From the IMG/VR virus record IMGVR_UViG_3300024518_000034, positions 1-64,000 of that record: a stretch of DNA of 64,000 nucleotides, one strand, 5' to 3'. Made by a program: the position numbers and the translations under genes. Below, in pieces: positions 529 through 19,934 of this stretch. The notes beneath the pieces are model-generated. The model did no database searches. It was not told where the DNA came from and worked only from the letters and a program-made list of their open reading frames with translations. The DNA is from a virus. Position 1 is the first letter of the stretch, and each line of letters opens with the position of its first letter.

Positions 529-531
529 TAG

Positions 532-560
532 TAGCAAGAACAATACTTCACTGGTATTCT
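532..560 (+). promoter_or_regulatory. Promoter copy P2 (TAGCAA-N17-TATTCT)
   Basis: TAGCAA 532-537, TATTCT 555-560, followed by AAGTGAAGTAAG. Confidence 0.75.
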
Positions 561-574
561 AAGTGAAGTAAGAT

Positions 575-734
575 GTCCTGGCTCGGTGCAGGATGTTGGA
601 TAGGCCATTGAAGAAGTCACGGGTCAAGCCCCTAAGCCGGGAGAGTCGTGAGCGTGAAACTATAACGTTAATGCTAGCCTAAGCGTTAGGAACCAATGCC
701 AACATTCAAAACGGTTCAATTCCGTTTGGGGACT
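575..734 (+). ncRNA. Reduced tmRNA-like RNA (tRNA-like domain + long P2 helix + short internal frame)
   Basis: Imperfect acceptor GTCCT/GGGGAC; canonical T arm AACGG-TTCAATT-CCGTT (710-726); helix GGATGTTGG(591-599)/CCAACATTC(699-707) extended by CATTG/CAATG; internal frame ETITLMLA-TAA (656-682) with stop in hairpin CCTAA-GCG-TTAGG. Confidence 0.45.
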
Positions 735-790
735 GCTGAGAAGTCAAGGTGCGAAAACTTACGAAGCTCGCATTCTTTCCAGGGGTTTTA

Positions 791-825
791 GGGATGTACC
801 ATCGGCGTCAAACATCCCGTTCTTT
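791..825 (+). terminator. Hairpin GGGATGT/ACATCCC followed by GTTCTTT; possible terminator or processing site
   Basis: 7-bp stem with short T-rich tail after the ncRNA block. Confidence 0.4.
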
Positions 826-845
826 AACAAGTAGGAGAGAGAAGA

Positions 846-1046
846 ATGTCTCATACGTACATCGTTGCTATCAGAGAGGTTCACATAAATCTTGTAGAAG
901 TAACGTCAGAGGGTCCATTGAGTGAGGAAGACGCTAAAGAGATAGCAGCGCAGCATAGCTGTTCGGATTCTCTCGATATCGAGTTTAGTCACACTATGGA
1001 TAACGATACTTGGACGGTAGAAGAAATAAACAAACAGGAGAAGTAA
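846..1046 (+). CDS. Hypothetical acidic protein (66 aa)
   Basis: ORF with upstream AGGAG Shine-Dalgarno. Confidence 0.65.
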   Translation: MSHTYIVAIREVHINLVEVTSEGPLSEEDAKEIAAQHSCSDSLDIEFSHTMDNDTWTVEEINKQEK

Positions 1047-1048
1047 TC

Positions 1049-1210
1049 ATGGCACGAGGTAAGAACCGTAATCAGCCGAAGATCAAGGTGAAGTGCAAGA
1101 AGTGTCAGGACGTGGGTGTTCGCTCTGTTCTCGTGATTCGCTCTGGTCCGAAAGCAACTCGTGGTGGTGCGTATCGCTCGGTGGTCAAGGTGGACTGCTG
1201 CAATGTTTAG
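1049..1210 (+). CDS. Small basic protein with CxxC...CC (possible Zn-binding)
   Basis: ATG 1049 after AGGAG; MARGKNRNQPKIKVKCKKCQD...VDCCNV. Confidence 0.6.
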   Translation: MARGKNRNQPKIKVKCKKCQDVGVRSVLVIRSGPKATRGGAYRSVVKVDCCNV

Positions 1211-1367
1211 TACAATTGAGGCAGATCGTGCAGCTTGTGCAGCAAACAAAACAAAAGCAGTCCGCGATGGAAAATTCGCTGAAGCGAGGGAGTGGAGTAA
1301 AGCGGAACAACATTTGAGAGAGGCAAGCGCTGCAATTCGCAGGATCAAGTGGCTAATGAAAAAGTAG
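1203..1367 (+). CDS. Hypothetical protein (54 aa)
   Basis: ATG overlaps the end of the previous gene; stop abuts promoter P3. Confidence 0.5.
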   Translation: MFSTIEADRAACAANKTKAVRDGKFAEAREWSKAEQHLREASAAIRRIKWLMKK

Positions 1368-1396
1368 TAGCAAGATCAGTAGTTTGTTGGTATTCT
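1368..1396 (+). promoter_or_regulatory. Promoter copy P3
   Basis: TAGCAA 1368-1373, N17, TATTCT 1391-1396. Confidence 0.8.
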
Positions 1397-1431
1397 AAGT
1401 GAAGTAAGGAAAACCACAAAAGGAGGGACAA

Positions 1432-1653
1432 ATGAAAGTGAAGATGAAAAACCCAAGTAGCTGCATGGCTCGGACATCTAAGATCAAGGCCATTGCAAAA
1501 CAATGCAAGGCGCTGGGATTTATAGTCAAGGCAGACTATAAAAGTGCTGGCACCGTCAAGATCAAGGATGGTGAGGAAGAGATGTACATGGCTATTCAAA
1601 AGGGTAAGAATGGCCCTTGGATCGTTCGCTACAGTCAAGATTATTTTGCATGA
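1432..1653 (+). CDS. Hypothetical basic protein (73 aa)
   Basis: ORF with GGAGG SD, downstream of P3. Confidence 0.7.
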   Translation: MKVKMKNPSSCMARTSKIKAIAKQCKALGFIVKADYKSAGTVKIKDGEEEMYMAIQKGKNGPWIVRYSQDYFA

Positions 1654-1663
1654 GGTAAGACCA

Positions 1664-1834
1664 ATGGAGACTGAGAGGATTTATATCTGGGGCGTTTACA
1701 AGGCGATAGGGCACCTTGTCACCGACAAGGTTGGGCAGTCTCCTACTGAGTTGGGCGCAAGACTGGTAGCTATCGAGTGTCGCAAGACTGGGTATCTTGG
1801 TAATCTCAAGAAGATTCGCCGCAGAATAAAATAA
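1664..1834 (+). CDS. Hypothetical protein (56 aa)
   Basis: GAGGT SD, ATG 1664; ends just before P4. Confidence 0.55.
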   Translation: METERIYIWGVYKAIGHLVTDKVGQSPTELGARLVAIECRKTGYLGNLKKIRRRIK

Positions 1835-1843
1835 ATAAAGTAG

Positions 1844-1872
1844 TAGCAAGAAGTAAGTTAGTTCGGTATTCT
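1844..1872 (+). promoter_or_regulatory. Promoter copy P4
   Basis: TAGCAA 1844-1849, N17, TATTCT 1867-1872, A-rich upstream. Confidence 0.8.
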
Positions 1873-1906
1873 AAGTGTAAGTAAGAGAAACCGAAAGGAG
1901 ATCAAG

Positions 1907-2134
1907 ATGCAAGTCGAGAAGATCAGAGCGGCATTTGAACAAGCGTTTGGTGAGGCTGAAGTAGTGAGAACTGTTCCGGTGATTAGCATTGCGACACCTA
2001 ATGATGAGTTTACTGTCGAGATCGTCAATGGCAGACTGATCTGGACCGATTTCAGTCACACAACTGACCTGGGGCCTGAAGACGGGTCAGAAATTATCAA
2101 GAAATTGGTAACAAAGTGGGTAACTGCCAGGTAA
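1907..2134 (+). CDS. Hypothetical protein (75 aa)
   Basis: AAGGAG SD; ORF track. Confidence 0.7.
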   Translation: MQVEKIRAAFEQAFGEAEVVRTVPVISIATPNDEFTVEIVNGRLIWTDFSHTTDLGPEDGSEIIKKLVTKWVTAR

Positions 2135-2171
2135 TAGAGCGATCTGGGAAAACTACTAGGAGAATAAAATA

Positions 2172-2435
2172 ATGCGTAAGGCAGACGTGGAAGTGGGTAA
2201 GGTGTACAGTGCCAAGGTGAGCGGCAAACTTGTGATTGTGAGGCTAGATCGTGAGTCACGATATGGCGGTTGGGAAGGCACAAATCTATACACTGGCCGA
2301 AGTGTAAGGCTTAGGACTGCTGGACGATTGCGCCTGGAAGTACCGGAGTCTGTTGTTCAGAGAATGATTGACAGAGATAAGGTTCACAGAAAAAATGTCA
2401 AAAAGTGGCAAGAAGAGGAGTGGTCGATTTCTTAG
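2172..2435 (+). CDS. Hypothetical basic protein, SH3-like beta motif (KxDVxVGKxYxAKVSG...GGWxGTNLxTGRxVR)
   Basis: AGGAG SD; ORF track. Confidence 0.7.
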   Translation: MRKADVEVGKVYSAKVSGKLVIVRLDRESRYGGWEGTNLYTGRSVRLRTAGRLRLEVPESVVQRMIDRDKVHRKNVKKWQEEEWSIS

Positions 2436-2452
2436 AAAAGGAGAAAAACCAA

Positions 2453-2734
2453 ATGGCATGGCAAGTGATTTTGAATGGCGCACCAATTATTGATTGTGAG
2501 TCTGAAACTGAAATGGCAGACAAATTGCTCGCACTGTTCAATTTGGGGGTTTTTGGAACATTCGACACCAGAGAAGTGAAGTGTAAAGATTGTGCTGACC
2601 ACCTGCTGGGTTGTCCTGTTTGCACTGACCAACCTGCGCCTGCCACCAAGCCGGTGCGCTGGATCGTCCCGTCGCTGGTCCGCAAGACCGGCGCTGGCAA
2701 GTGGGTCGCGGAGCAAGGGGCGCGGGACGACTGA
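2453..2734 (+). CDS. Hypothetical protein with CxxC...CxxC
   Basis: AAGGAG SD before ATG 2453; CKDC and CPVC motifs. Confidence 0.65.
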   Translation: MAWQVILNGAPIIDCESETEMADKLLALFNLGVFGTFDTREVKCKDCADHLLGCPVCTDQPAPATKPVRWIVPSLVRKTGAGKWVAEQGARDD

Positions 2735-2758
2735 CCAAAAAGAAAATAAATAAAGTAG

Positions 2759-2787
2759 TAGCAAGAGTAGCAGTACGTTGGCAATCT
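2759..2787 (+). promoter_or_regulatory. Promoter copy P5 (TAGCAA-N17-CAATCT)
   Basis: Same motif and spacing. Confidence 0.7.
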
Positions 2788-2814
2788 AAATGTAGTAAGA
2801 AACAGTAAGATAAA

Positions 2815-2936
2815 GGGAGCCAACAATACTCCAGCGCAAAATCAGGCCGCGCTACACAAGAAAAGAGCAAACCGAGTGCTGAGAATCTAGGGGCGGTACG
2901 CAAGGGAAACGGTGGGTCGTGCGTGCAAAAAGCTCC
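2815..2936 (+). ncRNA. Multi-hairpin structured RNA of unknown class
   Basis: GGAGC/GCTCC closure; AGCGC/GCGCT, AGCA/TGCT and GTACGCA/TGCGTGC stems; follows P5; no ORF with SD. Confidence 0.4.
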
Positions 2937-2957
2937 GTTAAATTAAAAATCACCATG

Positions 2958-3032
2958 GATTCCGTCGCAGACTGCTGAAGGGTGCTAGGCTTGATAAATC
3001 CTAGTACCAGGGTTCAATTCCCTGCGGAATCT
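2958..3032 (+). ncRNA. tRNA-like RNA with elongated anticodon stem and no variable loop
   Basis: Perfect acceptor GATTCCG/CGGAATC; T arm CAGGG-TTCAATT-CCCTG; stem GTGCTAGG/CCTAGTAC with 10-nt loop CTTGATAAAT; atypical D region. Confidence 0.7.
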
Positions 3033-3063
3033 AAGATAAGTAAACAAAAACAGGAGAAAGAAA

Positions 3064-3237
3064 ATGAAGAAAGGTAAGACCATGGAAAAGCTCTTAGGTG
3101 AAATTCTAACTGAGATAGATAATTTGTCTCTTTCGGAGGGTAGTGACGGTTGTGACTTTCCTTGGACCGTAGTGGATGTTCGCTCTGTGAACCGATTGAA
3201 AGAGCTTGCAAACGAAATCGCAAAAGAAACAAAATAA
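3064..3237 (+). CDS. Hypothetical protein (57 aa)
   Basis: Hand-translated MKKGKTMEKLLGEIL...; AGGAG SD; ends at P6. Confidence 0.6.
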   Translation: MKKGKTMEKLLGEILTEIDNLSLSEGSDGCDFPWTVVDVRSVNRLKELANEIAKETK

Positions 3238-3241
3238 GTAG

Positions 3242-3270
3242 TAGCAAAAATAAAGTCACGTTGGTACACT
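3242..3270 (+). promoter_or_regulatory. Promoter copy P6 (TAGCAA-N17-TACACT)
   Basis: Same motif and spacing. Confidence 0.7.
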
Positions 3271-3305
3271 GAGTGGTAATAAACAAAACAAATCAGGAGA
3301 GAGCT

Positions 3306-3548
3306 ATGTCAGTGAATAAAAAGAACTTCCAGCGTCGTCATTATGTTGCAGTAGCTGAAGCGATCAACACGCTCTGGAGTGAGGCACGCGATGGGGAAAT
3401 GATGGTAGCGACTAAGAACGAAGAGTCGTACCGTGATGCGTTGACTGATACCATCAGCGAATTGTCTAAAACTTTCTTCTATGACAATCCCAACTTCGAC
3501 CAGACTCGATTCACTGAGGCGTGTCGAAAAAGAAATAAAAAAGAGTAG
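3306..3548 (+). CDS. Conserved-looking phage early protein (RxHYxAVAxAI...DNPNFDxxRFxxAC)
   Basis: AGGAG SD; motif type common in phage early regions. Confidence 0.65.
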   Translation: MSVNKKNFQRRHYVAVAEAINTLWSEARDGEMMVATKNEESYRDALTDTISELSKTFFYDNPNFDQTRFTEACRKRNKKE

Positions 3549-3577
3549 TAGCAAACAAGTAGCGAGCTTGGTATTCT
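3549..3577 (+). promoter_or_regulatory. Promoter copy P7
   Basis: TAGCAA 3549-3554, N17, TATTCT 3572-3577. Confidence 0.75.
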
Positions 3578-3615
3578 GTTTAGAAGGATAACAACGGAAA
3601 ACAGGAGAAGCGGAA

Positions 3616-4602
3616 ATGGCACATAAGATTAAGCTGGTTAAGGACAAGATTGAAGTCCTGACCGATGGCTGGCCTGGTAAGCCAGCACTCGCTAAGATCA
3701 AGGCATTGCCCGGTCGCAAGTGGGACGCGGATCGCAAGATCTGGTGGCTCCCCGCTTCGCCGGATGGCGTTGCCGCTGCCGTAGCGCTCGCCGCTGAACT
3801 GTGTTATGTGGTTGGCGACGATCTGCTCAAGCAGGCTTCCGATCAAGCTCGAAAAGAAGATGGTGTGTTTGCGGTACAGGACGCATTCATTGATGACGAC
3901 GTGGCAGCATGGGCATTTCAGCGTCAAGGCAGTAAGGCACTGGCGCGTAACGACCGTTACATTCTGGGCGATGACATGGGTCTGGGAAAGACTCGTCAGT
4001 ATCAGATGGCTCTGCCGAAGGCTAAGAAATGTGGACTGCTGGTGATCTGCCCAGCTTCGATCAAGGGTGTTCACGAGAAAGAGCTTCGCAAGTGGCGTAA
4101 GGATTTTAAGAAAATCACGATTATCTCAGGACGTGGGAACTTCAGGTATCCCAAGACCGGTGAGTGTGTCATCATCAATTTCGACATTCTCCCCAAGGTG
4201 GTTGAACTGGAGACTATGGACGTTCCGGCTGATCTCATCGTGGTGGTTGATGAAGCGCATAACTGCAAGAATTACAAGGCGCTACGCACCAAGCGAGTTA
4301 CTAAGATTATCGAACGTGCCTGGCTTGCATGGCTGTTGACTGGTACAGCGCTACAGAATCGACCCGGAGAACTCTGGACTATCCTTCAGGTTGGCGGTCT
4401 GATTGAAAAGGCTGGGCTGACGTTCGGACGCTTTTGCGCTCTGTTCGGTGCTAAGAAGGGTCAGTATGGAATGGTTTGGGGTGCGCCTCGACCAGAGATT
4501 GCGGAAATCCTCAAGCGAGTGATGCTTCGACGTGAGAAGGGCGAAGTGCTACAGGATCTGCCGGAAAAGGTGTACAGCAGTGTGCCGGTGGAAATCTTTT
4601 AA
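3616..4602 (+). CDS. SNF2/SMARCAL1-type helicase, N-terminal half (HARP-like domain + RecA lobe 1)
   Basis: PGRKWDADRKIWWLP HARP-like segment; DDMGLGKT (I), VVDEAH (II), LLTGTALQN (III), MLRR..VLQDLPEK; lacks motifs IV-VI. Confidence 0.9.
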   Translation: MAHKIKLVKDKIEVLTDGWPGKPALAKIKALPGRKWDADRKIWWLPASPDGVAAAVALAAELCYVVGDDLLKQASDQARKEDGVFAVQDAFIDDDVAAWAFQRQGSKALARNDRYILGDDMGLGKTRQYQMALPKAKKCGLLVICPASIKGVHEKELRKWRKDFKKITIISGRGNFRYPKTGECVIINFDILPKVVELETMDVPADLIVVVDEAHNCKNYKALRTKRVTKIIERAWLAWLLTGTALQNRPGELWTILQVGGLIEKAGLTFGRFCALFGAKKGQYGMVWGAPRPEIAEILKRVMLRREKGEVLQDLPEKVYSSVPVEIF

Positions 4603-4610
4603 GAAAGTAG

Positions 4611-4639
4611 TAGCAGGATCAGTAGCATGTTGGTATTCT
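4611..4639 (+). promoter_or_regulatory. Promoter copy P8 (TAGCAG-N17-TATTCT), between the helicase halves
   Basis: Near-identical to P3 over ~50 bp; begins right after the helicase-N stop codon. Confidence 0.8.
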
Positions 4640-4689
4640 AAGTGTAGTAAGGAACAACGGAACGCAGGCAACGAAAAAAGGAGCGAGAC

Positions 4690-9213: not shown

Positions 9214-10890
9214 TTAGAGTGTTTCGGAGAATTGATCGGGGTTTTGTAGTTGTTGTGCTGCGAGGTCATACTGTTCGTCGGCCTGTTGTTCTGCCATTGC
9301 TGCTTCCCACTCGTCCGGTCTTTCTTTTTTAAATCTTTCCATATATTGTTCATGGGTTTCATTGGCTAAGTATTGTTTTAGTCTTTCAATTTCTTCTAAG
9401 GCAAACTTTAATGAAAACATATAGTCACCGTCAGGGTCAATGAGCTTTTCTATTGCAGGTATTCTTACGATATCATGGTCAGCCCTTTCTCCACCCCGAT
9501 AGCCACCAATTCTATCATCGATAGTTGCGTTTACGTCATGAATTTCTTTAAAAGTATACTCATTCATCTTCCACAAGTAATCTTCTATCTCTTCTGGCTC
9601 ATTCTCGCTTATGGCTTTTTCTATCATTGGAGAAGGAGCTTCGAATCTATTTCCCGCATAAGTAAGGGCAAGAAGTGAATCTTTTGCAATATATGGCTCA
9701 AGATGCGGTAATGGGTCTATTCCGGTATTATTTACTAATTTTTCTGTCAAAAGGTCGCTTTTGCCGACAGCATCGAACAATTCTTTAGGAAAATAGCTCC
9801 AGTCATATTTGCCACCATAGTTTGATGATCCTTGGTCCATTAGCCAATTAAATGCTGATTCTGGGTCTCTAGCGGCTGTATTGTTAAGGAATTGTCCAAT
9901 TTCTTTATAATCACCTTCATCGTTTATTTCTACGTCGTAAATATCCATAACCTGTATGTCTTCACCAAAATGCCATTGAAAGTAAGGTGCTTTATCTTTA
10001 AATAAAGTGTACATTTTACCGTCATCTAAGTAGCTTTGTGCCGTTGACCCATCAGTATCGTAGTCGCCTCTAGTACACCATCTTGTTCCATTACCTAAAG
10101 CGTTGAGACCTTTTGCAGAATTAGACTGAATTATATCATATTGTTCATCTTGATACACTAATTCGCCATCTTCTCCACCCTCCGATATGTCCAGACCCTC
10201 AATCCTCTTATCTAATGTCGCCCCTCTGTCTCTTTTGTAGTGTTTTGGGTAGTAATCTGATAAGTGTTTGTCAATTTCTTGAGGTGATCTGAACTCATCA
10301 AACCTTTTGTCAGCTTTATCGATAATTCCATTCTTATCTAAGTGATGATACAGTGCCATTATATTTTTAGTGTCTTCAGCATCTTCAGCGTGCCATGCAT
10401 ATTTTATATATGATTTTGCAAGCCAGTCAGAGTATTTAGCTGCATCCTGCCCAGTCGGATCTACATCGATGATCATTTCAACGGCATCAATAGCTCTTCT
10501 TATACCACCATAAGTATTCTCTCCATGTAGGACGCCTGAAAAAAAGTTTCCGCCAACTACCTCTCTGCCGTCCTGACCTGCACTAATCCAAGCATTTCCA
10601 TCTCTTATCGATTCTTGAATTGCTCTGCTTTTGAAAATATTGGGCCAATCTTTTTCTAAGTCTCTAGAGTATCTAACTTTATTAATTCCTTCTTGCCATG
10701 ACATGTCAAAGAAATTATATGAATTGAAAATTCCTTTCCATTCAAAGAAATCACCATCTGACTCTATCAGTGGATGGTCTCCAGATTCTTTAGCACATTT
10801 TTCATTCCACAAATATAGCTGCAATTGGTTCTTTTTCTTTTTAGAGATTGCCTCTATTCGTTTCCCGTGCCATAGTTCTAGAATGCTCAT
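9214..10890 (-). CDS. 558-aa protein with leader MSILELWHGKRIEA and central GTxWC domain
   Basis: Start at 10890 avoids overlap with the divergent gene; LGNGTRWCT motif; acidic composition. Confidence 0.8.
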   Translation of the reverse strand: MSILELWHGKRIEAISKKKKNQLQLYLWNEKCAKESGDHPLIESDGDFFEWKGIFNSYNFFDMSWQEGINKVRYSRDLEKDWPNIFKSRAIQESIRDGNAWISAGQDGREVVGGNFFSGVLHGENTYGGIRRAIDAVEMIIDVDPTGQDAAKYSDWLAKSYIKYAWHAEDAEDTKNIMALYHHLDKNGIIDKADKRFDEFRSPQEIDKHLSDYYPKHYKRDRGATLDKRIEGLDISEGGEDGELVYQDEQYDIIQSNSAKGLNALGNGTRWCTRGDYDTDGSTAQSYLDDGKMYTLFKDKAPYFQWHFGEDIQVMDIYDVEINDEGDYKEIGQFLNNTAARDPESAFNWLMDQGSSNYGGKYDWSYFPKELFDAVGKSDLLTEKLVNNTGIDPLPHLEPYIAKDSLLALTYAGNRFEAPSPMIEKAISENEPEEIEDYLWKMNEYTFKEIHDVNATIDDRIGGYRGGERADHDIVRIPAIEKLIDPDGDYMFSLKFALEEIERLKQYLANETHEQYMERFKKERPDEWEAAMAEQQADEQYDLAAQQLQNPDQFSETL

Positions 10891-10936
10891 ACTAATACTA
10901 TAGTTATAATCTCCAGGCTGGTATTGTATTAGTATA

Positions 10937-12613
10937 ATGAGCATTTTAAATCTATTTAATAACCAAAGATCCGCTGCCAACGAGCGTAAGGATAAAGAAC
11001 TCATTAGAAAGACTCTTTACAAGGACACATCGTTTGTTGATGCTCAAGTCGATGGGATTTTGTACAGCCTTGATAGGCTAATAGGTGAATATGAGCGCCG
11101 TGACCGAAGAAGACCACCTCAAGCTATTAGAAATATGATAAAGTGGCAATCTGAATCAGTATTTGATCTTCTTGATATAGATTTGGAAATGGAAGCAGCT
11201 AATTTTGAAAATCAATTTAATCCAAGCAATGAGGAATTAATGTCTCATGTAAAGGACGCTTACCACAGTATTTCGCCATTTGTCAACTCTGAAAATCCTA
11301 TTGAAGATTTTCCAGAGTTAACAGGCAAAATAGTTGATGAAAAGGTAGATGATGTGTGGGCGAACCTAGTAAGTGATAAAACAGGTAAAAGATACTCTCA
11401 ACAAATACTCTTGTGGTGGTCAAGAGGATCTACAGCACAGAATCTAGGTGAAGACCTCCCTGCAATCGTTGACAGCATTAAATTATTTGAAAAGCATAAG
11501 AAGTCACTACCTAAAAATAATATTAGTCAGTACAAGCGTTGGGACCAGTTAAATGAAGTGTTAGAACCTATTCGTGTCGCTGAAGCCGCTGAAAACAGAG
11601 ATCTAAGATTGGAAAGTGGAGAGACAGTAGATGAATTAGTTGGTCTAACTGAAGAACAAAGAGAATTTATGGATCCAAAACAAATGAGGTTTCCCGGCAC
11701 AGAATATCCTCAAAGTTCTGGTAATGTAGTAGTAAAGCAAATAAAAACTTTCGAAGAAGCCAAAGCGCTGGGTGAAGGTACTACTTGGTGTTTTACTAAT
11801 AGTCCTAACTATTATAGTCAGTATTCTAACAGAGGACCGATATATATTGTATTAGATAACGGTGATCCCAAAGTTGGCATTGGGATAGATGGAGATTGGG
11901 ACATTGAGATAAAAAATTCCAATAATAGACATCTTACTGGAAAAGAAGAAGATTTGTATGGCCCCATCGTTGAAAGAATAACTCAACTAAACGATATGGT
12001 AGAGGCGCTAGAAAATCAAGCAAACGACGACGAGCAAAGAGTAATTGACGAGTGTGAATATTGTGGAGGCGACATATGGGGGTATGGCAACGATGACGAC
12101 GAATATTTTGCTTTTGAAAGTGGCACTGTGTGTGAAAGTTGTTATTCGGAGTATGGATGTCGAGCGGGATATTACGAGCATGGTTGGAAAAACTCAGATG
12201 ATACGTTTGAAGATCCAAGAGATGAAGAAGTGGGTGGCAAAATATCATCTTGTTGGAGTTGTGCCGAAAGTGATGAGCTAGTTACGCAGTGTGCGGCGTG
12301 TGAAGATATAATATTTAAAAATTATCCTTACAAACACGGTTATAGTCGCAATTTTGAAATTGATAATTATTTTATAAGTATGGAAGGTGACCTGTGCGAA
12401 GACTGTGGTGCAAAGTGCATAGTGTGCGAAGAAGGATTTTTAAATACAAGTAAAAACAAAGAGGAAGATTTCATCTGCAACGAATGTAGGCAAATGGATT
12501 TTCCAGAAGTAGAACAGCAGCCAGTCTATGAACAGCCAGTAGGAGATTGGGAAGGCGAATTTTTTCCTCAAGGAGATCCGAATATAATTCACTATAAGGC
12601 GTTAGGAGAATAA
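10937..12613 (+). CDS. 558-aa protein with leader MSILNLFNNQRSAA, central GTxWC domain and C-terminal CxxC array
   Basis: LGEGTTWCF motif; many CxxC pairs in the last ~200 aa. Confidence 0.85.
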   Translation: MSILNLFNNQRSAANERKDKELIRKTLYKDTSFVDAQVDGILYSLDRLIGEYERRDRRRPPQAIRNMIKWQSESVFDLLDIDLEMEAANFENQFNPSNEELMSHVKDAYHSISPFVNSENPIEDFPELTGKIVDEKVDDVWANLVSDKTGKRYSQQILLWWSRGSTAQNLGEDLPAIVDSIKLFEKHKKSLPKNNISQYKRWDQLNEVLEPIRVAEAAENRDLRLESGETVDELVGLTEEQREFMDPKQMRFPGTEYPQSSGNVVVKQIKTFEEAKALGEGTTWCFTNSPNYYSQYSNRGPIYIVLDNGDPKVGIGIDGDWDIEIKNSNNRHLTGKEEDLYGPIVERITQLNDMVEALENQANDDEQRVIDECEYCGGDIWGYGNDDDEYFAFESGTVCESCYSEYGCRAGYYEHGWKNSDDTFEDPRDEEVGGKISSCWSCAESDELVTQCAACEDIIFKNYPYKHGYSRNFEIDNYFISMEGDLCEDCGAKCIVCEEGFLNTSKNKEEDFICNECRQMDFPEVEQQPVYEQPVGDWEGEFFPQGDPNIIHYKALGE

Positions 12614-12713
12614 CTAACATGCTCGCAATAAAGATTTTTACTTTTTTAGCTGTATTGGTTATGTCAATCTTTATTATCTGTACATCAGATTAACATCAAT
12701 TCAATCCATTTTG

Positions 12714-12896
12714 TTATCCTAACTTATATTTATCTATTGACTTTCCATCCGACGCCCACAGTTCAATTTCTTCACATTTCCAATCGCCTGTCGGCGTAGG
12801 ACCATCATATTCTCTAGATGTGCAATATGCTAATGTCGCGTGGGCTTTAAACTGCCTATGTCTATCTTCAATATTGATTCCTTCATTTTCTATCAC
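12714..12896 (-). pseudogene. C-terminal fragment of a 2H phosphoesterase (2'-5' RNA ligase-like)
   Basis: FKAHATLAY = second HxT motif only; 60 aa. Confidence 0.5.
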
Positions 12897-12905
12897 TCGC
12901 TTTCT

Positions 12906-13514
12906 CTAGCTCCACCAAACATAAAGTATTGGCTTTAGTTCATCTATAATTGCTTCATCCTTAAACAAGTTAAAATATCTACATGTAAATTTTACGCAAT
13001 CTGGTACTTTTGGCTTTTCATATTTTGTTGGATCATAAAATTCTTTATTGCGAAAAACTTCATAAGGATATATTCCTTTAGAAATGTCTAAAACTCTAGG
13101 AATTAAATCTTTCTGTGTTTCTTTTTCTTCATGATAATCAATTAAATCATCATATCTCCGCCAATCTTTGAAATTTCCTGGCGGTATAATTAGACATACA
13201 TTGCTAAGACCGCCTTCAGTATCATGAATGATAGTATTATATGGACTCCACCGATAAGAATCTTGCCACTCCTTCAATCTTTCACATGCTTGATATTCTA
13301 TTAAAGCACTAAACGATTCTCCTTGAATTTTACCATCACATATTACCTTGCAAAACTCTATATATCCATCCAATGTAAACTTTTCTTCTTCATCTTCATC
13401 AAATCTTTGGTGCATATATCCTTTTGGATTAAATCTGTCATCTATAATCTCATGGTCTTTACATTTAACATCAGTTAAAGCATACCCCAAAGCTTTGTGT
13501 ATTCTAATTCCCAC
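12906..13514 (-). CDS. Hypothetical protein (202 aa)
   Basis: Long ORF within the operon. Confidence 0.75.
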   Translation of the reverse strand: MGIRIHKALGYALTDVKCKDHEIIDDRFNPKGYMHQRFDEDEEEKFTLDGYIEFCKVICDGKIQGESFSALIEYQACERLKEWQDSYRWSPYNTIIHDTEGGLSNVCLIIPPGNFKDWRRYDDLIDYHEEKETQKDLIPRVLDISKGIYPYEVFRNKEFYDPTKYEKPKVPDCVKFTCRYFNLFKDEAIIDELKPILYVWWS

Positions 13515-13941
13515 TTTGTTTCTCTTTTATAAGGATTGCAGCTTTTTTCATGTCCGCTGAATCGCCAAAGTATTGCTTCACGCTTTTCATCATTGAGCCA
13601 AACTTGTGTTTGGCGGGAATATCACCTAAGTCCCCATATTCCCTATCGATAAAAGCTGACAATTCTTCGTCAGATGCGAGCGCGGGGAGATATCCTGAGA
13701 GGATATCTATTTCTTTATTTAAATTTTTAGAAGTATAGCTAGTCTCATCCCCTATTCTATTAATTGTTTCTGTTAAGCTCTTCACCGTACTCTTAATTGT
13801 TTTAATAACTGAGGGGTCGTCAGGGGTCTTATTTTGCCTTGTGGCGTCACCTATGAGAACACCAAGCAAACTAGACTTAGTCTTATCGTGATTCTTCATA
13901 GCTTCGCGCCTATCTCTTTCAATTATCTTTAAAATATTCAT
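13504..13941 (-). CDS. GatB/YqeY-domain protein
   Basis: RDRREAMKNHDKTKSSLLGVLIG...EIDILSGYLP...FGSMMKSVK. Confidence 0.75.
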   Translation of the reverse strand: MNILKIIERDRREAMKNHDKTKSSLLGVLIGDATRQNKTPDDPSVIKTIKSTVKSLTETINRIGDETSYTSKNLNKEIDILSGYLPALASDEELSAFIDREYGDLGDIPAKHKFGSMMKSVKQYFGDSADMKKAAILIKEKQSGN

Positions 13942-14135
13942 TAATCTCTCCAGTGGTCCGAAAATTTCTTTTGTATGTCTTTTGGTAATGCTCTAAATAT
14001 TTGCCATTGTTGTTCTGTAGGTAGTTTTAGTAAATATTTTAAATCTACTTTGTCTTTGAATGGTGATCTATCATCTAGCACCACTTTAATTACTGCCGCG
14101 AGTTCCTGAATTTTTGCTTTGCTTAACTTTTTCAT
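13941..14135 (-). CDS. Hypothetical protein (64 aa)
   Basis: ORF track; translational coupling. Confidence 0.55.
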   Translation of the reverse strand: MKKLSKAKIQELAAVIKVVLDDRSPFKDKVDLKYLLKLPTEQQWQIFRALPKDIQKKFSDHWRD

Positions 14136-14496
14136 TTTCTATCACCATTTTAATTCCGTAATTCGCTCCACGCTTGCAGAAGGTCCACTTACCGTGGACC
14201 TTACCATTTTCAATTTTTGCAGTTTTAACAAGGTTTAACATATCTGTCACAAACATTTCATAACAGGTTCCTGAGTCGTCCTTTAAAATAAATTTTACTG
14301 AACTGCGACCTCTATGGTATGTGTCAATGGTCAGTATAGCTTCAAATTCATGATTTTCTATCCATTCATATTCTTCATCATATCGATTTTCTGGATAATC
14401 AACAAGATTTCCATTCATTTTATAAAATGCAACTCTCAAAGTATTATCCGCTGTATAAAATTTACACCCGCCGCCTGACCTTCTCTTTATACCCAT
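14086..14496 (-). CDS. Hypothetical protein (136 aa)
   Basis: ORF track. Confidence 0.65.
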   Translation of the reverse strand: MGIKRRSGGGCKFYTADNTLRVAFYKMNGNLVDYPENRYDEEYEWIENHEFEAILTIDTYHRGRSSVKFILKDDSGTCYEMFVTDMLNLVKTAKIENGKVHGKWTFCKRGANYGIKMVIENEKVKQSKNSGTRGSN

Positions 14497-14729
14497 TATT
14501 TCTTCACCCCTTTTGATTTTTCAACAATTGCAGCTTCTACTTTTGGAGCATGATTCTCAAATCTTCCATTATCATAACCCCAATTATATCCCATACCAAA
14601 AACAAAGATATACCAACCTATCTCGGCATATCTACCATAGCCTTTCATAGTCAGGCCAACAGTTAGAATGAAACCAGCGCCAACTGCAACGTGCCCGATC
14701 ATTGTTTTCCATGTAGCCTTTTTAGTCAT
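14496..14729 (-). CDS. Small membrane protein (2 TM)
   Basis: Two hydrophobic segments. Confidence 0.6.
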   Translation of the reverse strand: MTKKATWKTMIGHVAVGAGFILTVGLTMKGYGRYAEIGWYIFVFGMGYNWGYDNGRFENHAPKVEAAIVEKSKGVKK

Positions 14730-14962
14730 TACTTTACCCTAACTTCGTTGTGTGTTTCAATCCAGACGTGTGCCCCGCAGCTTAATGGCTTGTCTGGGGA
14801 ATAGATAACTTTAGCTGCGACGTTTCCATTTTCATCCAAAATCTCTGCTTCGTGTCCATACCTGTTGTCTTTATATGTTTTAATAGAAAGCACAGGAATG
14901 TTTGTCCCGTGCTTTCTATTTTTCTTAATATTGTGTTGATTCACATGTATTCGCTTAATCAT
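14729..14962 (-). CDS. Conserved phage hypothetical protein (IHVNQHxIKxN...PLSCGAHVWIET)
   Basis: Recognisable phage family motif; start MIKRIHVN. Confidence 0.7.
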   Translation of the reverse strand: MIKRIHVNQHNIKKNRKHGTNIPVLSIKTYKDNRYGHEAEILDENGNVAAKVIYSPDKPLSCGAHVWIETHNEVRVK

Positions 14963-15326
14963 TCTTTTTGTCTGCTTGTTCCTTCCTAATCTTAGACGCT
15001 GAGATATCTTCAGTCGCTTCATCTAACTTGATCTGCTCTATATTATACCCGACTTTCCTTCCGTAGTACACAGTCAAATCGCAGCCAGGGTCATCTAGCT
15101 GAATTATTTTTACCTTTGACAAGTCTGGATAGTGTTTTCTAATCAGATTATATCTTTCAAGAAAAGTCAAAGGATTGCTGTCGTCTCGTTGAGTTTCTCT
15201 TACATAAATTACGCAAGTATTACATTCTTCCAAAATCTTATCTATACACGCTTTGTGACCATCATGCAATCCAATCTCTGGAACCTGAAATCTTCCTATA
15301 AATACTCCTGTTTTAATTTTCGTCAT
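14955..15326 (-). CDS. Cytidylyltransferase-like (HIGH-superfamily) nucleotidyltransferase
   Basis: VFIGRFQ...LHDGH and ISASKIR motifs. Confidence 0.8.
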   Translation of the reverse strand: MTKIKTGVFIGRFQVPEIGLHDGHKACIDKILEECNTCVIYVRETQRDDSNPLTFLERYNLIRKHYPDLSKVKIIQLDDPGCDLTVYYGRKVGYNIEQIKLDEATEDISASKIRKEQADKKND

Positions 15327-15693
15327 TTGTTTTCTCCCTTAAATATTTTTGATGAGGACATTCTTTATAAAAACCTTTGGCCATATTGCAATTATGACAC
15401 AACACTTGATATCCTTCTGGAAACTCTTGCTGAATTAGCCAGCTATAAATGTATTTTGAACCCAATTCCTTCCTGTGCTGAGTTCCACCTCCATCAATAT
15501 GATCTATGGACAAAAACTCATAAGTCACTTCTCCGCAACATGCACAAGACAGAGATTTATTACTATAATGAGATGGTACTTTTAATCGTTGATTTTTCCA
15601 ATAAGTTCGTTTCTTTTGTAAGAGACTGTCTCTATTTTTCTCTCTGTACCATTTACTATATGCAGCACGCGCTTTTTTATCTTTCAGTGGCAT
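15313..15693 (-). CDS. HNH endonuclease
   Basis: CACCGE...SIDHIDGGG...QVLCHNCNMAKG. Confidence 0.85.
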   Translation of the reverse strand: MPLKDKKARAAYSKWYREKNRDSLLQKKRTYWKNQRLKVPSHYSNKSLSCACCGEVTYEFLSIDHIDGGGTQHRKELGSKYIYSWLIQQEFPEGYQVLCHNCNMAKGFYKECPHQKYLREKTNDEN

Positions 15694-16650
15694 TTATTCA
15701 CTATTCTCCTCTTTTTTAAATTGTTCTTTTAATAAAATATCTTTATACCACTGTGGTAACCCAGCAGCAACACGCCTCTTGATTTTTGGCCAGAAGTATT
15801 TGAACAATTCGTTCTTGATCAAATCTTCGCACTCGTCTTTTACATCATCCTGAACCATTCCCATTAATTTACCAATATCTTTTGGCTCACCAGTGTGTTC
15901 GCCAAGCTCCTTCAGTCTTTGCACAGCCTTGTCCCAGCGAGCTTCACTTCTGTACTTTTGACACAACACTGTTTCGATGTCACCTTGAGATGGATTTCTC
16001 TGTCTAAAATCAGTTTTGTTAATTTCCTTAAATCTTTCGCTGACGTGTTTGCCCATTAGAGTCTTTCCATCACGACCCCACTGATTGTAGTTTTTGATTA
16101 CCACGCCTTCGATGTCTGATCCGCCAAGAACTGAAAGATTATCCATAAATTCCATAATCTGATCTACAGTTTTGATCTCACCAACGAACAGAGTTGGAAC
16201 TACTTCCAATCCCATATTAAGCGCTTCTGCTTTTAGATCTTCTGGCATCATTCTCTTTTCAAGACCAATGTCTACATCGTACAAAATGAATCCGCCCTTA
16301 GGCATTCTCTCATACGCAAGCGTATTGTGTTTTGGACTATGAAATGCTTCACCTCTGTAGATCCAACCTTCAGTTAGTAATCCTTTATCAAATAAGTCCT
16401 GCGCGGTATCCATTGCAGGCTTGAAAAGATTGTTAGGAATATAGATACCTTCATCGAAATCCATAACCATTTGTCCCTTTGAACGAGCGAACAATTTTCC
16501 ATCAGCCATGCCGAAGCTGAATTGCGACCCGTCTACCTTTTCTTGTACAACTACTTCACCGTCTAGTAGATTTTCAACACTTGGGTGTCCGAGATTCCAG
16601 ACTTTTACGTAACTTCTTAACTTCTTTGGTTTTATAATATTTTGTTCCAT
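15694..16650 (-). CDS. RNA ligase, Rnl2-like
   Basis: VQEKVDGSQF (motif I), YRGEAF (III), FILYDV (IIIa), EGVVIK (IV), GKHVSERFKE (V). Confidence 0.85.
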   Translation of the reverse strand: MEQNIIKPKKLRSYVKVWNLGHPSVENLLDGEVVVQEKVDGSQFSFGMADGKLFARSKGQMVMDFDEGIYIPNNLFKPAMDTAQDLFDKGLLTEGWIYRGEAFHSPKHNTLAYERMPKGGFILYDVDIGLEKRMMPEDLKAEALNMGLEVVPTLFVGEIKTVDQIMEFMDNLSVLGGSDIEGVVIKNYNQWGRDGKTLMGKHVSERFKEINKTDFRQRNPSQGDIETVLCQKYRSEARWDKAVQRLKELGEHTGEPKDIGKLMGMVQDDVKDECEDLIKNELFKYFWPKIKRRVAAGLPQWYKDILLKEQFKKEENSE

Positions 16651-16662
16651 TGTACTTCTCCG

Positions 16663-17049
16663 TTAAATGTGGCAAATCTCTAGTTCGCCTTCTCTATTCG
16701 AATAAAAAACTCGATCTATATTGTACTGCCTAATGAAATTGATGCAACAGTTACATGGCTTTGACATGCGAATTTCTCCCTGGTTGTTTAACCTTATGAC
16801 CAGCAAGGACTTATTGTCAATCCTAACGTCTGGGAAGAGATTCTTAAATCGGTTAAGCGCATCAAATTCAGCGTGTTTAGCTTTATAGAAGGTGTTGCTC
16901 TTCGGGTGCGTAGTAGAACTATTAATGCCTACCACGAATATCTTAGTGCCCTTACAAATGAAGCAAAAGTGCCTGTATTGTACCTTCTTAATCTCCGTAA
17001 GTTTTTTCTGTGCTACTCTGACGCATCTGTTAAATTGTTTAATCGTCAT
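16663..17049 (-). CDS. Zn-dependent nucleotide/nucleic-acid deaminase
   Basis: HAE...SKPCxxC. Confidence 0.8.
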   Translation of the reverse strand: MTIKQFNRCVRVAQKKLTEIKKVQYRHFCFICKGTKIFVVGINSSTTHPKSNTFYKAKHAEFDALNRFKNLFPDVRIDNKSLLVIRLNNQGEIRMSKPCNCCINFIRQYNIDRVFYSNREGELEICHI

Positions 17050-17128
17050 TTATCTTCCTTTATGCCAAAAATGGGATTCATCTTGCCTCTTCCTAGCTAC
17101 AGTATATATGAGGAGAACGTAAAAAGCA

Positions 17129-17347
17129 ATGGAGAAAGAAATTATGATCAGGATAGGGTTGTCAAACTTGCTAGTGATGTTTGGCATTTGTATGGTTCCG
17201 TTTATTGCGTCAGCGATAGCCAACGTTATTTTTTTATACGAAGAGTCTAAACGTATTGCCGCATTTAAAAGAATAATTCAAGAGCCCGACAGGGCTTCAG
17301 AAATAGCCATGAAGATGATACCAGGAAAGCACAATGATCGAACCTAA
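17129..17347 (+). CDS. Small membrane protein
   Basis: N-terminal hydrophobic helix. Confidence 0.6.
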   Translation: MEKEIMIRIGLSNLLVMFGICMVPFIASAIANVIFLYEESKRIAAFKRIIQEPDRASEIAMKMIPGKHNDRT

Positions 17348-17699
17348 TTATATCTACAGAGCAACGCTAGATAGAATTAAAGACGGTGACACCTTTGTCT
17401 TATTGGTTGACGTAGGGTTTGAAGCCTATAGAAAGATAACAGTTAGGCTGGCTGAAGTTGACACCCCAGAAATTTGGGGTGTTAAGCATTCTAGTGAAGA
17501 ATATAAGATGGGTAAAAAGGCTAGTACTTTTGTAAGTAAATGGTTTGAGGAAAATTCCAATGTAGTTATTCGTTCTATTGTAGACAAAAAAAAGAGAAAT
17601 AAAAAAGGATCGTTGAAAAGATATTTGGTCTATGTATACAGTGGCGATAAGTGTCTTAACGATGAGCTTATTGAGAAGGGCTGGAAATGGCAATCGTAG
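17334..17699 (+). CDS. Thermonuclease (SNase-like)
   Basis: KDGDTF...VRLAEVDTPE...RYLVYVY...LNDELIEKG. Confidence 0.85.
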   Translation: MIEPNYIYRATLDRIKDGDTFVLLVDVGFEAYRKITVRLAEVDTPEIWGVKHSSEEYKMGKKASTFVSKWFEENSNVVIRSIVDKKKRNKKGSLKRYLVYVYSGDKCLNDELIEKGWKWQS

Positions 17700-18019
17700 A
17701 TCTGTTCAGTAAGAGAACAGCGCAAGCGACATATTACCATGGAACTAGTACCGCTGTCGTTCCTCTTGATGAATTTAGACTTTTGCCTCCAGACGAAACA
17801 GGAAATCTGAGCGAGGCTGGACGAATAAAAAACTTAGATATGGTTTTCTTTACTGAAGATTATAATTATGCCAACATATATGCCCAAAGAGCAGTAAATC
17901 AGTTTGGTGGAGATCCTGTAATTTTTAGAGTCATTCCCATGGGAGACGTTAGAACTATAAACGATAAACCTGGCGCTACTGTTTATTCAACAATAGGCGC
18001 TTTTATGGAGTTAACATGA
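17687..18019 (+). CDS. ADP-ribosyltransferase-fold protein with leader MAIVDLFSKRTAQA
   Basis: YYHGTS...VFFTEDYNYANIYA, resembling HYE/Arr-type ART cores. Confidence 0.6.
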   Translation: MAIVDLFSKRTAQATYYHGTSTAVVPLDEFRLLPPDETGNLSEAGRIKNLDMVFFTEDYNYANIYAQRAVNQFGGDPVIFRVIPMGDVRTINDKPGATVYSTIGAFMELT

Positions 18020-18678
18020 GTATAGTAGATTTATATAATAAGAGAATGGCACAGCCATGGACTGGTGGATATGTTAAAAAATTTATTGAGATGTTAGATA
18101 ATGATATTCAATATTTACAAAACGATGCATATGAGCTTGTAAAAGTTGAACAACTTAACAAGGATGCAAATAGTTATCTTTCAATGTTTAAAGATATTCC
18201 TGAAGCGATAAAAACCAGACTTAAAACAATGAGAACTTTAACAACTCAGACATTACAGAAACGAGGAGAAGGTTCTACATCTAAAGAACCTGTTTATCGT
18301 CAAATGGTTTCTAATTATTCTGAAACGGCAATGAATTTAATAAGTGAGGTAGATAGTTTGCTTGCGCAGAACGACATTGAACAGTTAAAAAATAAATTGC
18401 CAGAATTGACAGAGCTTATGAACAAGGGAACTTCTCTAATCGATGCTGTTTCTAATATTGGTCAAGATATGAAATATTACAGTCAAATGAGAACCGACAT
18501 GGGTTTCTTAAAGATTAGATATAATAAAATTTTAAAACTAACCAAAGCAGCGCCAGAACAACAACCAATGCCTTTGCCACCAAATTTAGAAGATCCAAAC
18601 TGGCCATGGCAGGGGCAAAATCAGCAATCTGTACCTCCTAGAGCAGAATGGGGCGCTAACGAAACAGGTGTTATGTAG
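18016..18678 (+). CDS. Helical protein with leader MSIVDLYNKRMAQP
   Basis: ORF track; coiled-coil-like; Pro/Gln tail. Confidence 0.75.
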   Translation: MSIVDLYNKRMAQPWTGGYVKKFIEMLDNDIQYLQNDAYELVKVEQLNKDANSYLSMFKDIPEAIKTRLKTMRTLTTQTLQKRGEGSTSKEPVYRQMVSNYSETAMNLISEVDSLLAQNDIEQLKNKLPELTELMNKGTSLIDAVSNIGQDMKYYSQMRTDMGFLKIRYNKILKLTKAAPEQQPMPLPPNLEDPNWPWQGQNQQSVPPRAEWGANETGVM

Positions 18679-19934
18679 TGAGCATAGTTGATTTGTTTTT
18701 TAAACGTACCGCTGTAGATTTTCTTGACCACGCAACGGAAAGAGTTAGAGAATATGGTCTTACCGATTGGAGCGATATAAATCCTAGCCATAGGCCATGG
18801 GAGGAAGAATCACGAGAATTTTATACTGATATGGATCTGACAAGCGACGACCAACAAGCGTTTGCTTTGTCTCATTTCTTAGAAAATTTAGGAGGCGGTG
18901 ATCCAGACGCAGGACTAGATCTTTTTAAACAACTAGAACTATCGCCAGATGTATCTATAGTTGGTCATGGTTCTGGAATATATGGACAAGTATATATTTT
19001 GTCAGATAATTCTGTAGTTAAAGTGGCTCCTTCAAAAGAAGAGCCCTATATTAAGGATTTAAACGAGATGTCACTCACTGGTATGCCTGAGATATATAAT
19101 ATTATTGACATACCATCTTCCGAAATAGCACACCAAGAGGAATTAAAAGCAAGGCCGTACAATACTCCGATAACAAATCCTGGCAGAACTGATGTCGCAA
19201 TTCATATGGCAAACGCAGGAAGAACAATGGAAGATTTGTTTGAAGAAAAACAGCAATTGTTTGAAGCCTACGATAAATTCGTTAGTAGTGTAGGAAGTAA
19301 CAAAGAATATTTTGAAAATTTTAGTGGACCAAAAGAGTGGATTGATAAAACACACTTTAGTCTCTCTGAAGAAGACATGAATCTGTTCGAACAACTTTGG
19401 AATAACTGGGCTCTTTGGCAATCGTTAGGAATAGATATTGCTAACGACAGACATTGGAATAATGTAATGGTTGATGAAAGTACAAATCAATTTTACTTTA
19501 TTGATTTTGGTCGTACTAGTACTAAGAAGTTTCACAAAGAGCAAGAAGGATTAGGGAGAATAATGGATGCGCCAGCTACTATAGGTGACGCCTTAAAAAC
19601 TTTAACAGAAGATCTGCAAGAAGGAGAGGAATCTTCTGAAGAATATCAATGGAACGATGAAGCATTGTTTAATTATGTATATTCTAAATTGAACGAAGCA
19701 TTTAATTTTGCATATGGCCCTACACAACTAACTAAGCAAACTAATAGATTTTTGAAAGAACATAAAGGTCTTAGTCCAGAATTTATTGATAGTAAGTTGG
19801 CTGAATTTGAAAGTCGTTTTAAAGATATTCGTCCGATGCCAAGTGCTGATATGGCATGGACAATGAGGCCAAAAGAATATGAGCCAGTTGAAGAAGAGAT
19901 GCCTGAATTTTTTCCGGGGATGACAAGTGATTAA
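18678..19934 (+). CDS. Protein-kinase-like enzyme with leader MSIVDLFFKRTAVD
   Basis: GHGSGIYGQV P-loop, VVKV, DRHWNNVM catalytic loop, IDFG. Confidence 0.8.
   Translation: MSIVDLFFKRTAVDFLDHATERVREYGLTDWSDINPSHRPWEEESREFYTDMDLTSDDQQAFALSHFLENLGGGDPDAGLDLFKQLELSPDVSIVGHGSGIYGQVYILSDNSVVKVAPSKEEPYIKDLNEMSLTGMPEIYNIIDIPSSEIAHQEELKARPYNTPITNPGRTDVAIHMANAGRTMEDLFEEKQQLFEAYDKFVSSVGSNKEYFENFSGPKEWIDKTHFSLSEEDMNLFEQLWNNWALWQSLGIDIANDRHWNNVMVDESTNQFYFIDFGRTSTKKFHKEQEGLGRIMDAPATIGDALKTLTEDLQEGEESSEEYQWNDEALFNYVYSKLNEAFNFAYGPTQLTKQTNRFLKEHKGLSPEFIDSKLAEFESRFKDIRPMPSADMAWTMRPKEYEPVEEEMPEFFPGMTSD

Follow-up and report, generated by a model that had tools for sequence, protein, structure and literature searches.

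The internal head proteins of phage T4 all use a capsid-targeting sequence (CTS), which ends at a gp21 site and is removed by gp21 (PMC5694885). The CTS of IPI, IPII, IPIII and Alt is credited to Mullaney and Black (1996), as cited in PMC5694885, and its sequence is MKTYQEFIAE (PMC8442874). In SPN3US and phiKZ, the portal, major capsid protein (MCP), protease and inner head proteins are cut at one motif (PMC5694885). Here we analyse a peptide of 12–14 residues, the 'tag', that begins otherwise unrelated proteins encoded between positions 9,214 and 19,934 of a 64,000-nucleotide stretch of viral DNA. This stretch, the window, makes up the first 64 kb of one virus record of 192,308 bp (IMGVR_UViG_3300024518_000034); 'genome coordinates' below refer to the whole record and all others to the window. 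We propose, at a probability of about one half, that the tag, M-S-I-[VL]-D-L-[FY]-x-K-R-x-A-Q, serves a clade of uncultured large phages, with an MCP related to that of Bacillus phage G, as a propeptide that targets proteins to the capsid, portable and made of two parts.

The tag resembles the T4 CTS in being a short (10–20 residue) N-terminal amphipathic peptide common to unrelated proteins of one phage, in marking proteins from variable loci, and in ending in a motif that recurs in head proteins. The T4 cargo, like that of this phage, includes an ADP-ribosyltransferase (ART)-like enzyme. The tag has no sequence similarity to MKTYQEFIAE, and whereas T4 propeptides are cut after [LI]-x-E, the cut here is predicted to fall after R-x-A, with no Glu at the predicted P1. 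The head genes also differ. The nearest cultured relative of the MCP is phage G gp27 (39% identity), whereas the T4 MCP is of the gp23 type; neither a gp23-like MCP nor a gp21/S77 protease was found, and the protease that is present has no Pfam match. Because of these head genes, as identified, the phage is not T4-like. The tagged genes are more numerous here (about ten) than in T4 and scattered over the genome, and their function is putative. By analogy, the tag system appears functionally most like the T4 CTS and internal-protein system, but because sequence, predicted cleavage rule and head-gene lineage all differ, it is not a member of that family.

In the phiKZ-like giants (SPN3US, phiKZ and 201phi2-1), head and ejection propeptides are cut at [AGS]-x-E (PMC5694885). 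These phages are alike in having one protease motif in portal, protease and inner head proteins, a portal with an N-terminal propeptide, and identical N-termini, read as CTS-like, on the diverged paralogues gp53 and gp54. They are unlike in that their propeptides mostly exceed 100 residues and include no single common tag, and in having another motif and another lineage. Encapsulin cargo-loading peptides offer a further parallel, since there too a short terminal peptide sends unrelated enzymes into an HK97-fold shell; these peptides are usually C-terminal and uncleaved, and the shell is a cellular nanocompartment rather than a virion.

A shared N-terminus on unrelated proteins

An earlier note on this DNA had claimed that five unrelated proteins share an N-terminal leader, and all five N-termini were found, at 10890 (minus strand), 10937, 17687, 18016 and 18678. 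The genes, with the adjoining features (lengths in amino acids, aa), are:

9214..10890, minus strand: 558-aa tagged protein A, with a GTRWC segment; tag codons 10849–10890
10891..10936: 46-bp spacer, partly palindromic, between the divergent tagged genes A and B
10937..12613, plus strand: 558-aa tagged protein B, with a GTTWC segment and a Cys-rich C-terminus; tag 10937–10978
17334..17699, plus strand: untagged staphylococcal-nuclease (SNase)-like gene; Pfam SNase 4.5e-08, PHROG endonuclease 2.9e-28
17687..18019, plus strand: 110-aa tagged ART-like protein; tag 17687–17728, domain from residue 17
18016..18678, plus strand: 220-aa tagged helical protein with a Pro/Gln-rich C-terminus; tag 18016–18057
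18678..19934, plus strand: 418-aa tagged kinase-like protein; tag 18678–18719

The consensus M-[SA]-I-[LV]-[DEN]-L-[FWY]-x(1,2)-[KQ]-R, as previously given, holds for all five. Four of the genes start with ATG; that at 18678 starts with GTG, overlapping the previous stop by one base. For protein A the start was set at ATG 10890 rather than at ATG 11004 of the longer open reading frame (ORF). Translational coupling joins the genes at 17687, 18016 and 18678 to the untagged SNase-like gene that precedes them. When the strict motif was sought in all six frames, it was found at the five starts and, besides these, only in a CTG-initiated off-frame stretch of 14 aa.

The conservation is at the protein level, as the earlier note had also maintained. 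The tags at 17687 and 18678 are identical at 10 of 12 residues, and nine of those ten are encoded by different codons; for the tags at 18016 and 18678 the identity is 9 of 12, with seven encoded differently. The proteins behind the tags are indeed different: after removal of the first 25 residues, blastp gave no significant similarity between any two tagged proteins, the best pair being the two 558-aa proteins around their GT.WC segment (E = 0.21).

A profile of the five tags, run over the six-frame translation of the whole genome, revealed further copies at genome 103804 (194 aa), at 182944 (103 aa), where the tag lies four residues in from the start, and at 97645 (1499 aa), where a tag-like segment occupies residues 10–24. 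Enlarging the profile with tags from relatives added a weaker match at 129314 (125 aa). The enlarged profile gave 14 matches, of 9.6–26.6 bits, in this genome and one relative, and all of them lie within the first few codons of ORFs with at least 98 residues remaining. Five of the 14 were absent from the set used to build the profile, and the best reversed decoy scored 6.6 bits. No internal or off-frame copy was found in this genome with the tag profile. Eight tagged proteins are firm, and the matches at 129314 and in the 1499-aa protein are weaker; judged by sequence, at least eight, and probably ten, otherwise unrelated proteins of the phage carry the tag. The earlier note had named, as one possible refutation of its proposal, a motif not enriched at N-termini genome-wide; the enrichment was found, and the proposal is not refuted on this count. 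The existence of the tag, its strict N-terminal position and selection on it at the protein level are established.

Conservation of the tag and turnover of its cargo

Related metagenomic phages, with portals 55–94% identical to that of this phage, carry the same tag on almost entirely different proteins, some twenty more in all. Their tagged genes often lie in tandem in variable islands or beside head genes. An orthologue of the kinase-like protein, 87% identical and with its tag, is present on four JGI contigs (L008–L011); all four keep the gene order SNase, ART-like, helical, kinase and all three tags, that of the helical protein in L008 included. L008 has one additional tagged gene, of 101 aa, without counterpart in the window. 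The protein B orthologue in L008 and L018 keeps its tag, and the gene for protein A is missing from both.

We scanned 241 million metagenome records with a degenerate DNA version of the tag and obtained five matches, of which two were chance, one repeated L008 and two were informative (L018 and L021). L018 is a variant of window positions 6.1–11.4 kb in which about 6 kb has been replaced; the replacing segment has three consecutive new tagged genes, of 150, 174 and 124 aa, and L018 lacks the minus-strand 558-aa gene. In L021, whose portal is about 55% identical, a new tagged protein is encoded two genes downstream of the portal gene, and its tag differs from that at 17687 at two positions. The chance matches are a 20-aa ORF in L017 and, in L020, a bacterial exonuclease gene beside an Rrf2-type regulator. 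The L020 gene (L020:544–2235, minus strand) encodes a DEDD-type exonuclease/TPR protein with an N-terminal peptide nearly identical to the phage tag.

Portal homologues led to a further relative, contig C17 of assembly G001 (148,771 bp; portal 57% identical). The tag pattern has four matches in this 3.4-Mb assembly, all of them on C17, and a control pattern has none. At least seven C17 genes are tagged (10691, 14833, 25133, 25726, 66081, 139573 and 140243); that at 66081 lies directly upstream of the head module, and 10691–11224 encodes a full-length tagged 2H phosphoesterase (Pfam 2_5_RNA_ligase2, 1.7e-12). The sole tagged orthologue common to this genome (G000) and C17 is the 1499-aa protein (46% identity), in which the tag-like N-terminal segment is retained. 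Contig L037 has four tagged genes, among them a 796-aa homologue of protein B with a G..WC segment.

Over the 19 tags of our alignment A5 the consensus is M-S-I-x-D-L-x-x-K-R-x-A. Across these phages, conservation of the tag far exceeds that of the head proteins, and the bodies behind it are almost wholly replaced; portability of the tag, and its clade-wide conservation with cargo turnover, are established. A scan of IMG/VR for the strict tag gave two matches, both chance, and phage G has no match to the pattern. When 1.84 billion representatives were searched with the tag profile, most matches were the input proteins themselves; P0072 was the one new relative, and a eukaryote-like repeat protein was set aside as a false match. 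The first six residues of the tag were not found in the literature searched.

Of the cargo functions proposed earlier, the ART fold is moderately supported. The 110-aa protein matches phrog_2110 (5.5e-31), the profile match beginning at residue 10. Its model (predicted local distance difference test score, pLDDT, 72) has Arr as its best Foldseek match (E = 3e-3, probability 1.0, TM score 0.5), followed by Tpt1/KptA and then by cholera and pertussis toxin A subunits. Weak sequence matches, to Pfam Arr-ms (E = 0.05) and to a PDB profile (E = 0.03), fall below curated thresholds. The kinase assignment is weaker, resting on motifs and weak matches alone: a glycine loop, VxK, DxHxxN and DFG can be read in order from the sequence, there are weak matches to a PHROG kinase (E = 0.005) and Pfam PI3_PI4_kinase (E = 0.022), and the nearest Atlas clusters are kinase families. 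The AlphaFold model of this protein was unusable (pLDDT 41) and was left out of the fold search. Protein A matches no Pfam or PHROG family. The central domain of the 558-aa proteins, as seen in protein B, resembles hypothetical proteins of PA5oct-like Pseudomonas jumbo phages. The 194- and 103-aa proteins, like several in the relatives, are small and hydrophilic, and in many of the small tagged proteins an acidic stretch follows directly on the tag.

The ART-like protein is also informative about how leaders are exchanged. None of its six homologues at 52–61% identity has the tag, and four of the six begin at the first residue of the conserved domain. One of these homologues, P0005, has a different N-terminal extension and lies in an island (L012:410–11684 with L013:6270–6965) in which at least 12 neighbouring genes begin M-K-x-F-x-x-[FWY]-L-E, a leader that resembles the T4 CTS MKTYQEFIAE (PMC8442874). 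We could not confirm that L012 belongs to a T4-like phage; its neighbouring 1187-aa helicase resembles those of the SPO1 group. Given the tag here, the T4-CTS-like leader on P0005 and the bare starts elsewhere, one small ART-like domain follows a different shared leader in each of two phages, and in other phages it has no leader at all. That distant homologues lack the tag and one has a T4-CTS-like leader instead lends independent support to capsid targeting.

Two observations on cargo genes may be added. Next to one of the 558-aa genes, a 60-aa ORF (window 12714–12896, minus strand) is 53% identical to the C-terminal third of the C17 2H phosphoesterase, and has the look of a tagged cargo gene of the past, now truncated. 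The 796-aa ORF of L037 (L037:3726–6116) has a tag at its start and a second complete tag in frame at residue 719, with R-T-A immediately before the second; two cargo genes may have fused here, or the ORF may contain an internal start or encode a polyprotein with a cleavage site.

Head-protein motifs and competing explanations

The head genes and the large terminase gene were identified as follows, in genome coordinates:

139534: 172-aa head-module protein
141334–143202: portal; phrog_16240, 3e-56
144314–145198: head maturation (prohead) protease; phrog_18299, 2e-14
145209–146273: scaffold candidate
148783–149637: MCP; phrog_2522, 2e-46
94168–96177: large terminase; tblastn to annotated terminases

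Head proteins, too, have the tail of the tag (K-R-x-A, in most cases with Q after it) close to their N-termini. RTA[QE] is present six times in the proteome, with about one expected; four of these cases are in the first 40 residues of a protein, namely in the portal, in the protease, in the 172-aa protein and in one of the tags. For the broader [KQNI]R.A[QEASV], the first 30 residues of the proteins hold 11 cases where 1.9 would be expected, and none of 300 shuffles gave as many; its cases outside the tags are the portal, the protease, 139534, 97317 (the gene preceding the 1499-aa protein), 104961 and a DnaE-like protein, the last a probable chance match. The site reads K-R-R-A-Q in the portal and I-R-M-A-A in the protease of this phage. 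Three aligned proteases retain R-x-A, some 10 residues ahead of their conserved catalytic core. Scoring was possible for 45 portal homologues, the most distant at about 30% identity, and 28 of these have [KR][KRSTQ]A[QST] about 15 residues before the conserved core, and in the 90 residues after the core this motif does not occur. Most of the unscored close portal relatives have K-R-R-A-Q at the same place. RTA[QT] is present three times among the head-module proteins of a relative whose portal identity is 37%, and in L022 the homologue of the 172-aa protein starts with a tag-like segment that ends R-K-A-Q. The recurrence of R-x-A-[QS] in head proteins is established, and the sequences appear to link a shared tag to head-protein boundaries in an unusually explicit way.

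By analogy with the one shared motif of SPN3US, phiKZ and T4, this clade probably has its maturation cleavage site at R-x-A with Q, S or A next to it. Such a rule would be closer to that of herpesvirus assemblin (A↓S) than to those of T4 and phiKZ, which are Glu-specific. The earlier note had placed a probable cut after RxA, and this is supported in part: the motif recurs in portal, protease and 172-aa protein, and several tags have no clean R-x-A.

We suggest that the amphipathic hydrophobic half of the tag (I3, V/L4, L6, F/Y7; SIVDLF) docks a newly made protein on the assembling prohead, through scaffold, core, portal or shell interior, and that unrelated proteins would thereby be enclosed. 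The basic half, ending in R-x-A and then Q, S or A, would serve as the prohead protease motif, and the tag would be cut off during maturation at the same motif with which the protease presumably trims the portal, itself and other head proteins. The cargo would then stay in the head and enter the host with the DNA. In this phage it would consist of the ART-like enzyme, the kinase-like protein, the two 558-aa proteins and small hydrophilic proteins, and in the relatives of a 2H phosphoesterase and many orphans. The capsid-targeting and cleavage reading of the earlier note is supported in so far as the tag is portable, N-terminal and conserved while its cargo turns over, and RxA lies at head-protein boundaries. 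We also count in its favour that none of the tagged genes is preceded by the early-promoter family TAGTAGCAA/TTGGTATTCT described below. More tentatively, and at somewhat less than even odds, we would see here a previously undescribed capsid-loading code, in which the tag MSIVDLF-x-KR-x-A↓Q and an R-x-A↓[QS] protease are used throughout a marine-type, phage-G-related clade, the portal is trimmed family-wide, and the loaded arsenal of enzymes (ART-like, kinase-like, 2H phosphoesterase and many orphans) is interchangeable.

Several points weigh against a capsid-targeting propeptide. Docking, cleavage, encapsidation and injection are steps that we infer. The tagged genes lie mostly far from the head module. 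About a third of 23 tags have N, Q, F, G or L at position 12, and since several tags have no R-x-A, cleavage there cannot be universal. The N-terminal enrichment of the motif is modest in C17 (8 against 2.8 expected, reached in 2 of 300 shuffles), and the motif conserved in portals could have a structural role instead of being cut. Finally, the residue layout of the tag matches that of the MinE membrane-targeting sequence, and a MinE-like reading offers a simpler physical explanation.

According to that reading, which we judge unlikely but the best placed of the alternatives, the tag is an N-terminal amphipathic helix that places diverse enzymes against the host cytoplasmic membrane, on its inner side, unpackaged and uncleaved. 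In MinE the hydrophobic residues are L3, L4, F6, F7 and L8 and the cationic ones R10, K11 and K12 (PMC5473585). Alignment A5 shows the corresponding layout, hydrophobic at 3, 4, 6 and 7(8) with a cationic cluster in 9–12, the equivalents in the tag being I3, V/L4, Asp 5, L6, F/Y7, K9 and R10. Class by class, MinE residues 2–12 (PMC5473585) and the tag run in the same order: position 2 is small, 3–4 are hydrophobic, 5 is Asp, 6–7 are hydrophobic or aromatic, and 9–12 contain the cationic cluster. MinE is unlike the tagged proteins in being one bacterial protein with a defined fold; it lacks an A-Q tail and is unrelated to head proteins. In favour of this reading, residues 4–13 form a separate helix in the model of the ART-like protein; the bacterial exonuclease of L020 indicates that near-identical N-termini arise outside phages; and the tags that have no R-x-A tail pose no difficulty, a membrane address needing no cleavage. 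What a membrane address leaves unexplained is the conserved A-Q after K-R (A in 13 and Q in 11 of the 23 tags), the R-x-A-[QS] at the boundaries of portal, protease and 172-aa protein, the position of tagged genes in or next to the head module (L021; C17 66081), the tag-like N-terminus of the 172-aa homologue in L022, and the T4-CTS-like leader on an ART homologue. Were it nevertheless correct, the tag would define a phage-wide route of effectors to the host membrane, also undescribed.

Slightly less probable is a docking or recognition peptide for some phage component other than one mediating head entry through the scaffold. The partner might be a chaperone, a modifying enzyme (the tag then resembling the leader of a ribosomally synthesized and post-translationally modified peptide, RiPP), a membrane-anchored protease paralogue or a site on the tail or baseplate, with virion fate going either way. 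Two genes could provide such a partner: that beside the portal gene, for a 191-aa protein with a hydrophobic segment at its N-terminus and no family assignment, and that for a radical-SAM enzyme at genome 126831. Yet no partner gene is consistently found beside the tagged genes of this genome, L008, L018, L037 and C17, and no modifying-enzyme gene stands beside them as would be expected of a RiPP-like leader. The radical-SAM gene lies in a glycan/sulfation island, more than 20 kb from all tags but the weak one at 129314 (about 1.5 kb away), and none was found in L008, L018 or L037. The cargo, moreover, consists of enzymes and small hydrophilic proteins and not of adhesin-like domains.

That the tag acts on expression or stability, either as an N-terminus favouring translation initiation or as an N-terminal degron conferring a common lifetime, seems very unlikely. 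Its place at residues 1–14 in nearly every case and the frequent translational coupling in the 17.3–20.3 kb operon would fit. Against this, synonymous sites vary freely and no RNA element is conserved, the tag lies 4–10 residues in from the start in two proteins, the 796-aa ORF of L037 has its second in-frame copy at residue 719, and a degron leaves the motif match to head proteins unexplained. A functionless relic of duplication or recombination between gene starts, for which one could cite the head-to-head 558-aa genes around their partly palindromic spacer and the three adjacent tagged genes, can be dismissed on the 9 of 10 identical residues with different codons, the tag nearly unchanged at 55–57% portal identity while bodies are replaced, and the unrelatedness of those bodies. 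Synonymous differences and clade-wide conservation contradict RNA-level and purely historical readings alike.

If the tag is a capsid address, sequence alone would mark the proteins that this clade injects with its DNA, and the tagged orphans, otherwise unannotatable, would be candidate counter-defence and host-takeover enzymes. HK97-type prohead proteases would have a second, non-Glu cleavage rule, and with it an N-terminally processed portal. The T4 strategy of a CTS plus variable cargo would have evolved independently in an unrelated head lineage, with which the same ART-like domain behind two leaders in two phages would fit. The tag would also provide a short peptide for loading foreign proteins into another type of capsid.

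The genome and minor features

The phage is uncultured and in the large-phage size class, and CheckV estimates its genome as about 90% complete. No close relative was found among 50,697 phage records, and megablast of the interval against phage records gave no match. The large terminase was identified by tblastn, and Pfam Terminase_6N has no match anywhere in the genome. For the protease, phrog_18299 is the sole match; no Pfam or PDB sequence match was obtained, and a profile built from the protease alignment found nothing in PDB.

In the portal homologues P0010–P0067 the conserved motif is K/R-K/R-A-Q/S, typically as M-K-R-R-A-Q-S/G-G, behind a variable N-terminal extension. Several portal homologues carry inteins (lengths 880–1060 aa, with Pfam intein/LAGLIDADG matches). 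The gene for the 191-aa protein with the hydrophobic N-terminal segment (genome 143215–143790) is directly 3' of the portal gene, and a lipoprotein-like gene has the same position after the portal gene in G001:C17 (L023:12935–13489).

The 1499-aa protein (genome 97645–102144) is an orphan encoded 1.5 kb downstream of the large terminase gene, with no match in PHROGs, Pfam, phage records (tblastn) or Atlas. Its gene is followed, in both G000 and C17, by one or two small tagged genes that are mutually non-homologous.

The spacer between the divergent 558-aa genes contains AACTATAGTA 15 nt upstream of the minus-strand start (10896–10905, minus strand). Similar elements are present at genome 97284, 148207, 89326, 96934 and 110037, and one lies 30–50 nt upstream both of the operon of 97317 and the 1499-aa gene and of the decoration/MCP operon. 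AACTATAGTA is weakly enriched in the window (10 observed, 5.3 expected; reached in 3 of 100 shuffles). It may be a late promoter, with an enrichment too weak for use as evidence of timing.

A second promoter-like element, TAGTAGCAA and TTGGTATTCT separated by 17 nt, has eleven copies, which lie only at 9–4654 and at 186–192 kb and are restricted to the GC-richer ends of the genome. The copies at positions 9 and 192020 are identical, suggesting that the genome is terminally redundant or that the assembly is closed into a circle.

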